From the IMG/VR virus record IMGVR_UViG_2548876934_000003: a stretch of 11,426 nucleotides of DNA. One strand, written 5' to 3'. The notes below the pieces were generated by a model that was not told where the DNA came from, did no database searches, and saw only the letters and a list, made by a program, of their open reading frames with translations. The position numbers were made by a program, and so were the translations under genes. How positions within the stretch are numbered: position 1 is the first letter of the stretch; every line of letters starts with the position of its first letter. Below, piece by piece: positions 9,167 through 10,090 of the stretch. Source of the DNA: a virus (lineage: Duplodnaviria > Heunggongvirae > Uroviricota > Caudoviricetes).

Positions 9167-10074
9167 TGAGCAGAAAAAACAAAAAAGTGCGCATGAGTTC
9201 ACGCATTGATCTCGCTGATGCGCTCAGGAAAGAATCATCGCTCAGTGCATTCACATTTGATGGTCCTTATCGCCTGACCGGGCATGACCTGCTGGACAAT
9301 ATGTACTGTGCTGATAACGGGCGGTGGTATGAAACCCCGGTGGACTGGTACGGTCTGGCAAGAGCAGCCCGGCAAACGTCCTGGCATCAGTCTGCGCTTT
9401 ACTTTAAGCGCAATGTATTACTCGGTTGCTACATCCCGCACCCGCTGCTTTCCCGGCAGGATTTCTCGGCGCTGGCGCTGGACTGGTTTGTGTTCGGTAA
9501 TGCATTCCTTGAGCTTCGAAGCAATATGCTCGGCGAACCGCTTAAATTACGGCACGCCCTGGCGAAATACATGCGACGCGGAAGCGATCTTGAATCATGG
9601 TGGTATGTGCAGGATGGTAAGGACGCGTTTCAGTTTCGCCCTGGCAAAGTATGCCACCTGATGAATCCGGATATTAACCAGGAAATCTACGGCATGCCGG
9701 AATATCTTGGCGCATTACTCTCGGCCAGCCTTTCTCATTCGGCGGACATGTTCAGAAAACTGTACTACGACAACGGATCCCACGCCGGGTGCATCATCTA
9801 CATCGGTGCAGCGCAGGTAAACCGCGAAAGCATGGACTCCCTGAAAGAAACGTTACAGGGTGCGCGTGGTGGTGGTGCATTTAAAAACGTGCTCATTCAT
9901 GCGCCCAACGGGGGCAAATCCATGCTCATCGCGGTATGGGTAGAACGCCGCCAAACGCTCAAAATCCGCTTGCTCGTATGTGTTCAAGAGCTTTGTCATG
10001 ATGTGATAACCTGTTCAGTCTGTGGTTATTTGTTGCTAAAAGTCGTCTCTAGGCGACTTTTAGGGTTAATTTAG
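9166..10074 (+). pseudogene. Q: P2 gpQ-like portal protein, 3' end replaced (homology lost around 9930-9960)
   Basis: The N-terminus MSRKNKKVRMSSRIDLADALRKE... and the body are portal-like and coupled to P. The ORF is 302 aa against about 344 for P2 Q, and the last roughly 40 residues (…RRQTLKIRLLVCVQELCHDVITCSVCGYLLLKVVSRRLLGLI) read into the repressor operator region and look non-native. Confidence 0.72.
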
Positions 10075-10080
10075 TCGTCT
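10038..10080. promoter_or_regulatory. Operator-like repeats upstream of the C-type repressor: palindrome AAAAGTCG-N8-CGACTTTT plus direct repeat AGTCGTCT x2
   Basis: Perfect 8-bp inverted repeat at 10038-10045 and 10054-10061. The octamer AGTCGTCT occurs at 10041-10048 and again at 10073-10080, 32 bp apart, flanking an AT-rich -10-like stretch (GGGTTAATTT). The region is immediately 5' of the repressor start at 10091. Confidence 0.45.
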
Positions 10081-10090
10081 GGAGACCACC

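Follow-up and report, generated by a model that had tools for sequence, protein, structure and literature searches.

In P2-type switches, the repressor C alone represses the early promoter Pe, Cox represses the repressor promoter Pc and is also needed for excision, and immunity is class-specific (PMC3448106, PMC1904268, PMC2995052). The operators of C proteins generally comprise two direct half-sites of 8-10 bp, placed 22-34 bp apart and flanking the -10 or the -35 hexamer of Pe (PMC1904268, PMC1904263). P2 C is a symmetric dimer shaped for two consecutive major grooves, its known sites are, paradoxically, non-palindromic, and it is structurally close to the controller proteins of the C.Esp1396I type and to the lambdoid and P22 c2 repressors (PMC2995052). 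Here we describe an immunity region of this kind in a stretch of 11,426 nucleotides (IMG/VR record IMGVR_UViG_2548876934_000003, Caudoviricetes), hereafter called the window. Positions 9917-10402 of the window probably constitute, taken as a whole, the lysis-lysogeny switch of a P2-like (P88/Xuanwuvirus-type) prophage adjoining btuC, and the identification of the repeats present there as the operator of the adjacent 103-residue repressor is well supported by sequence comparison. The region is an ordinary one of the P2 C type whose specificity class is uncharacterised, and the prophage around it has decayed.

The 91-bp spacer between the C gene and a cox-like gene contains two copies of AGTCGTCT, 32 bp apart, on either side of an AT stretch, together with a AAAAGTCG-N8-CGACTTTT palindrome (10038-10045 and 10054-10061). 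Both features had been pointed out in a first-pass annotation of the window, and both are exact. The inverted repeat extends to arms of 13 nt, CTAAAAGTCGTCT and AGGCGACTTTTAG (10036-10048 and 10051-10063), with one mismatch. Within the 11,426 bp of the window, AGTCGTCT occurs nowhere else (expected 0.21). In dinucleotide shuffles of the 91-bp spacer (n=5000), a direct 8-mer repeat was obtained in 3.9% of the cases and an equally good inverted repeat in 0.04%, whereas the two together were never obtained (0/5000). The AT stretch between the repeats, previously taken for a -10-like element, is present, but it belongs to a promoter on the minus strand: TTGACA, an 18-nt spacer and TAAATT form a strong leftward promoter, the sole consensus promoter in 9850-10250 and the predicted Pe, with a start expected near 10061. 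The copy of AGTCGTCT closer to the C gene (proximal) abuts the Pe -10 hexamer, and the other copy (distal) lies at about +13 to +20 from the predicted start. As a control, the same promoter scan recovers the annotated Pe of WPhi and the equivalent promoter of a sister immunity class (class B, see below); in another sister class (class C), no Pe was found under the strict settings. The overlap between the -35 hexamer and the C start is also present in class B, in WPhi and in P2.

The operator search relied on a simple rule, which takes the longest direct repeat that is exact within the spacer between C and cox. For P2, this rule returns two copies of ATCTAAAC, 22 bp apart, which match the annotated O1 and O2, and for WPhi it returns two copies of GTCACCAATA, 34 bp apart, which are the experimentally defined operator (PMC1904263). 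The pair of AGTCGTCT copies, with its spacing of 32 bp and TAAATT between them, has the same two-half-site layout. The resemblance to the paired C half-sites at the P2 early promoter, already suspected at first reading, is thus borne out: direct repeats of 8 bp, three helical turns apart, surround the -10 of Pe. Two more exact copies of AGTCGTCT are found in intact relatives (L086 11683-11690 and 13584-13591), at places that are outside the window or deleted from it. The first is within the early operon, some 440 bp from its beginning, and the second is some 1.4 kb downstream, past int. This brings the total to four copies in the 24.5 kb of the intact relative (expected 0.28). These extra copies, which have no dyad partner, are probably due to chance, or may be distant sites.

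With regard to the repressor, its residues 2-99, that is, its full length, match P2 C (PDB 2xcj/2l49, E=7e-17), and the protein also matches Pfam HTH_3 and phrog_147 (E=1e-35). The closest characterised repressor is the C protein of WPhi, a P2-like coliphage of immunity class III, which is 56% identical, and no phage repressor in the phage collection exceeds 60% identity. The exact 103-residue sequence is present on at least 1000 contigs. The base-contacting positions Y31, S35, Y36 and R41 of P2 C (PMC2995052) are occupied by L, K, N and K, respectively, in the window repressor.

The layout of the window is closest to that of WPhi, which also exhibits two direct half-sites about three turns apart (34 bp, compared with 32 bp in the window), with O1 between the Pe hexamers and O2 shortly after the transcription start (PMC1904263, PMC1904268), a Pe -35 TTGACA that overlaps the C start and an inverted repeat around the distal half-site. 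In contrast, the WPhi half-site, GTCACCAATA, is 10 bp long, whereas AGTCGTCT is 8 bp long, and the WPhi spacer is 152 bp long instead of 91 bp. In addition, the inverted repeat of WPhi consists of flanking AAAAGGT/ACCTTTT arms, whereas the arms of the window include the half-site itself, which makes it a true palindromic site. WPhi Cox has no detectable similarity to the cox-like protein of the window lineage. P2 has in common with the window the repressor family over its full length, the C-int order opposite cox, the two direct half-sites of 8 bp that flank the Pe -10 and the -35 hexamer overlapping the C start; it differs by a spacing of 22 bp and by half-sites without a dyad partner. The repressor of P2 Hy dis is of the same family and also has two direct repeats of 8 bp (PMC1904268), but these flank the -35 hexamer at 26 bp (2.5 turns), whereas those of the window flank the -10 hexamer at three turns. 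In controllers of the C.Esp1396I type and in the lambdoid and P22 c2 repressors, two dimers occupy two dyad sites in direct repeat. This is an analogy only, as the C.Esp1396I sites are spaced by 15 bp and the literature on the C family describes non-palindromic recognition. A switch of the 186 CI type, with a two-domain CI of about 190 residues, CII, inverted-repeat operators and distant flanking sites, was rejected, the repressor being of 103 residues and of the P2 C type; no cII-like gene is found between the cox-like gene and the downstream open reading frames (ORFs) in annotated relatives.

In homologous immunity regions, the repeats are kept within the class of the window (class A) and replaced in the heteroimmune sister classes B and C. 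In viral contigs with repressors 91-96% identical to that of the window, the spacers have diverged and nearby positions are substituted, yet GTCGTC is invariant in both copies; the -10 hexamer and the 32-bp spacing are invariant as well. The repressors of the sister classes are 68% and 58-62% identical to that of the window. Classes A, B and C have in common the cox-like gene, the 37 bp at the left of the spacer and the C-terminal 40 residues of the repressor, whereas they differ in residues 1-63 of C, corresponding to the helix-turn-helix (HTH) domain, and in the half of the spacer that contains the operator. The sister classes exhibit paired sites of their own in this half, with a spacing of 23 bp in class B and of 34 bp in class C, and in complete genomes the homology of classes B and C stops at position 10037 of the window, which is the left edge of the palindrome. 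Such a joint change of operator and HTH domain is what an operator predicts, and it is not expected for sites of a conserved Cox-like protein or of Int. The putative operator and the HTH domain appear to form a specificity cassette, and the comparison suggests that this cassette is exchanged by recombination inside the spacer and inside C. Its borders are sharp, from 10037 to about 10280 (C codon 63).

The switch is present at 99% identity or more in about 81 of the 5426 complete E. coli genomes, including O104:H4, O26:H11 and O145 strains; prophages of O26:H11 strain 11368 and of O104:H4 have an identical switch. It appears to represent a specificity class without a characterised phage, for which the present analysis gives exact predicted operator coordinates, and it may coincide with one of the published classes I-VIII or X. 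The published tentative class IX was ruled out, as the repressor of UTI89 is only 51% identical. A viral contig (L114, IMG/VR 2065487014_000023) encodes a repressor about 63% identical to that of the window and contains a nearly identical operator core, GGTCGTCGATAGGCGACC, with a proximal AGTCATCAGGAGACGACC 32 bp away, and cross-immunity between its class and that of the window is possible.

The first-pass annotation had treated the palindrome as an element overlapping the half-sites. The palindrome is exact, but it is not distinct from them: it consists of the distal AGTCGTCT and its inverted copy AGGCGACT, whose centres are 10 bp, or one helical turn, apart. The proximal site, AGTCGTCT-gg-AGACCACC, is a dyad at 6 of 8 positions, in the same register as the distal site. 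Class C has a perfect palindrome of 20 bp at its distal site and a dyad at 7 of 9 positions at its proximal one. More generally, 19 of the 31 distinct P2 C-type spacers, including those of WPhi and P2, contain a palindrome whose centre precedes the C start by 37-55 nt, and in 13 of the 16 other palindrome-bearing spacers tested the best proximal match to the palindrome is 28-34 bp away. The UTI89 P2-like prophage (tentative class IX, L170 1430-1495) exhibits a perfect CTTCACCA-tg-TGGTGAAG in a window-like layout, in which a second TGGTGAA, at a distance of 32 bp, immediately precedes the C start. A palindromic distal site fits a symmetric dimer directly. We tentatively suggest that the distal operator is truly palindromic here and, it seems, in many P2 C-type classes that are uncharacterised, the "direct repeat" being a second, degenerate dyad at three turns from it, and that these sites are bound by ordinary symmetric dimers; this may well turn out otherwise. 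If it is true, these classes would provide a natural contrast for studying the recognition of non-palindromic direct repeats by the symmetric dimer of P2 C. The wider interest of the locus is limited to this palindromic distal site, which is recurrent in the family and offers a cheap experimental handle on operator reading by C dimers. Karlsson et al. (2006) reportedly distinguished seven immunity classes, and the palindromic layout may already be noted there.

Several points weigh against the overall interpretation of the region. The direct 8-mer repeat alone is only marginally unlikely within the spacer (p ~0.04), and class B exhibits a weak dyad only. The Shine-Dalgarno sequence of C (GGAG, 10081-10084) is situated within the right half of the proximal site and could explain both the conservation of this half and its partial dyad. 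The published model for the family is the recognition of non-palindromic direct repeats, and WPhi reporters lacking one outer arm of the inverted repeat, or with one deleted, are still repressed (PMC1904263), so a full palindrome is not generally required. Finally, P2 C-type switches comprise convergent Pe and Pc promoters with overlapping transcripts; Pe is predicted in the window, no Pc there satisfied the strict scan, and relaxed criteria yielded weak candidates only; as Pc was not located by the scan, expression of C is assumed from the identity with intact prophages.

The palindrome could instead act mainly as RNA, forming a stem-loop with which the Pe transcript would begin, which would also be part of the Pc leader and which would tune or stabilise the convergent transcripts, with the direct repeats alone serving as repressor sites. 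Both strands fold stably (-16.8 and -11.5 kcal/mol, z ~-5.5), the predicted Pe start is located at the edge of the palindrome, and the recurrence of palindromes at a similar distance from the C start in the spacers of the family, WPhi and P2 included, is consistent with such a role. The same applies to the AAAAG/CTTTT outer arms common to heteroimmune WPhi-like classes, to the WPhi outer arm that is dispensable for repression (PMC1904263) and to the one compensatory pair change common to two of the compared sequences (L027 and L033). Nevertheless, we consider an RNA role unlikely and rank protein binding above it, because the arms of the palindrome are the half-site sequence and change together with the HTH domain. 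A hairpin need not match a repeat located upstream of the Pe start, and for the proximal copy a role in the Pe transcript is impossible, as this copy is upstream of the start. In addition, the inverted copy of the window and that of L027 both match the half-site consensus at 9 of 10 positions, the deviating position not being the same in the two, and the distal site of class B would pair poorly. The covariation is no better than in controls (44 of 500 shuffles), although with 8 sequences and one shared double change this test is uninformative, and no Rfam family (e.g. Sok) is found at threshold anywhere in the window.

Binding of the repeats by the Cox-like protein, Int or IHF, instead of the repressor, is much less probable still. 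The Cox and Apl proteins of P2 and 186 do bind direct repeats in the switch region (PMC3936717, PMC7498355), but the cox-like gene and int are conserved over classes A, B and C, whereas the repeats vary from class to class together with the HTH domain of the repressor. The repeats also cover the Pe -10 and start, which are the places bound by C in P2 and WPhi, and are not in the Pc half. It is also very improbable that the palindrome is an intrinsic terminator, even though a consensus scan flags it as terminator-like on the plus strand. Its tail, GGTTAATTTA, has no U run and the minus strand has no T run, only 5 of the 12 stem pairs are G-C, and the palindromes of the sister classes have no T tail either. 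Termination on the plus strand would moreover fall in the repressor's own transcript, 28 nt before the start codon; in view of the missing U tract and of the location ahead of the C start, we set this reading aside. As for chance matches in an AT-rich spacer, short repeats in two copies often have no other origin, and the p value of the direct repeat alone reflects this. However, we give this explanation hardly any weight, as direct and inverted repeats never arose together in the shuffles, the only two copies in 11.4 kb are 32 bp apart, the repeats are kept in diverged spacers and the same architecture is built from other sequences in the sister classes; the comparative data already disfavoured it.

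The repeats being best interpreted as sites of the repressor, a mechanism can be proposed. Dimers of the 103-residue repressor would bind two 18-bp sites whose centres are 32 bp, or three helical turns, apart. The proximal site would be within the spacer of the leftward Pe and the distal site just downstream of its predicted start, where AGTCGTCT and its inverted copy, one turn off, could allow a symmetric HTH dimer to contact both halves specifically. When both sites are occupied, Pe would be blocked. The truncated cox-like product, with 27 residues and no DNA-binding region, would neither repress Pc nor support excision, and the remnant would stay C-on and integrated while repressing the Pe of incoming phages of the same class. 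With C, the spacer and int left as they were and the Cox-like function lost, it is plausible that the remnant is locked C-on, unable to excise and immune to its own class. If the repressor is expressed, carriers of the remnant would resist class-matched P2-like phages without a risk of induction. The left half of the spacer probably contains Pc and the sites for the Cox-like protein. At 10002-10011, directly after the cox-like start codon, TGTGATAACC, which is similar to an extended -10 (TGnGATAAC), is kept in classes A, B and C and could be either Pc or a site for the Cox-like protein. The coordinates of the features are collected in Table 1.

Table 1. Features of the immunity region and of the adjoining genes, in window coordinates.
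Feature	Position	Strand	Remarks
Truncated portal gene, 5' part, codons 1-251 of 348	9166..9918	+	97-98% identical to the portal of P88-like phages
Deletion junction	9917..9918		Microhomology "AA" of 2 nt; early and replication genes (~9.0 kb) gone
Foreign codons (51) and TAG of the portal fusion	9919..10074	+	Antisense of cox-like stub and spacer
Cox-like stub, codons 1-27 of 92	9919..9999	-	ATG at 9999; without Cox-like DNA-binding region
Left half of the C-cox spacer	10000..10035		Common to immunity classes A, B and C
28-bp palindrome CTAAAAGTCGTCTctAGGCGACTTTTAG	10036..10063		Inverted repeat; its core is the distal site
Distal operator site (O2-equivalent), AGTCGTCT (10041-10048) and inverted AGGCGACT (10051-10058)	10041..10058		Predicted; about +3 to +20 of Pe
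Pe -10 hexamer TAAATT	10068..10073	-	Consensus scan; TTAATTT invariant in class A
Proximal operator site (O1-equivalent), AGTCGTCT (10073-10080) in the Pe spacer and AGACCACC	10073..10090		Predicted; position of WPhi O1 (PMC1904263)
C-type immunity repressor, 103 aa, intact	10091..10402	+	P2 C family
Pe -35 hexamer TTGACA	10092..10097	-	Overlaps the C start codon
Tyrosine integrase, intact	10452..11426	+	Pfam Int_N and Phage_integrase; 99.8% identical to the integrase of intact prophages

In intact relatives, a cox-like gene of 92 codons is followed by the 91-bp spacer, C and int, and the window keeps C, int and the first 27 cox-like codons; intact prophages have the same spacer, repressor gene and int at 99.8-100% identity. 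Genome comparison gives the same identity (99.8-100%) to the immunity end of the P2-like prophage for all the DNA from position 9917 on, while portal-type DNA matches up to 9918. The breakpoint is thus at 9917/9918, with a microhomology of two nucleotides, and not at 9930-9960, where the portal homology had been said to fade. Other E. coli strains have this P2-like prophage in the ihfA-btuC interval. In the window, about 9 kb were lost through an illegitimate deletion, which took everything from portal codon 252 to cox-like codon 28 and left the spacer, the repressor gene and int unchanged. Its size, about 9.0 kb, was measured against E. coli AR_0128 and strain 165 and corresponds to L086 (AR_0128) 4620-12001 (7382 nt) plus L001 4349-5999 (1651 nt). 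The lost genes include the remainder of the portal gene, PIN, ImmA-like and ParM-like partition genes, the replication endonuclease and small early ORFs.

The junction is natural, because the exact portal fusion protein is also encoded in GCA_000446225.2 and in one Logan assembly (SRR21142925), both times upstream of btuC. It is also rare, being present in none of the 5426 complete E. coli genomes, and an exact search over one genome per species gave no match, so that the fusion protein alone led to the two occurrences. About 8 of the approximately 81 complete genomes carrying the switch have a truncated cox-like gene, and at least three independent breakpoints of this type exist in the prophage lineage, namely those of the window, AR_0128 and ET791. 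The deletion of the AR_0128 type ends 1 nt from the window breakpoint in the cox-like gene (L086 11990-12010 versus window 9917) and arose between direct repeats of 10 bp (L001 4339-4348 and 6000-6009), and the ET791 breakpoint is 32 nt further into the gene. A common origin of the window and AR_0128 breakpoints was rejected, since the 10-bp repeat explains the latter and the retained gene sets differ.

On the plus strand, the deletion has created an ORF (9166-10074) that loses its portal homology and enters the repeat cluster, where it ends, as had been observed at first reading, with a TAG at 10072-10074. It comprises 251 native codons and 51 foreign ones, rather than about 40, and the foreign codons have no coding meaning. 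The portal gene is of the P88/Xuanwuvirus kind, and its match to Pfam Phage_portal is below threshold in the truncated form. On the minus strand, the cox-like stub runs on as a chimeric ORF of 48 residues down to 9853. Cox had initially been listed as missing. Its product is indeed functionally lost, but the gene is truncated and not absent, as codons 1-27 are retained (minus strand, 9999-9919). Residues 1-29 of the cox-like protein are matched by phrog_11533. In the full-length relative of 92 residues, residues 34-85 match phrog_575, annotated as "Cox-like excisionase and repressor" (E=4e-5), and residues 36-86 match P2 Cox in a pairwise BLAST (E=3e-5). A Pfam search of the cox-like protein returned nothing, so the link to Cox rests on PHROGs and on the pairwise comparison with P2 Cox only; with WPhi Cox, no similarity was detected. 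The Cox/Apl winged-helix DNA-binding domain, located in the matched region (34-86), is absent from the window product, and because its stub lacks this region the remnant appears to be functionally cox-null.

The prophage is a multiply deleted remnant, far beyond rescue. Like other grounded (defective) prophages, it has lost its lytic, replication and excision functions and kept the repressor, the operator and the integrase, and compared with other defective prophages that retain their repressor nothing distinctive is observed. As the DNA is almost identical to intact copies, such remnants are recent and there is no case for selection; the main meaning of the locus is that of a normal P2-type immunity region stranded by prophage decay. 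Two further internal deletions have left fusions elsewhere in the window: the N-terminal part of a tape-measure gene is fused to the small terminase gene at 6129-6144 (homology overlap of 16 nt), and at 7815-7819 a capsid gene truncated at its 5' end runs into the large terminase gene, at the middle of the latter (overlap of 5 nt). At the left end, three ORFs are present on the minus strand (1-141, 332-592 and 742-1431), among which one of 229 residues has no Pfam match; this end includes an ORF for a toxin of the Hok/Gef family and a zinc-finger gene of the ogr/Delta type, both named after the annotation of ET791.

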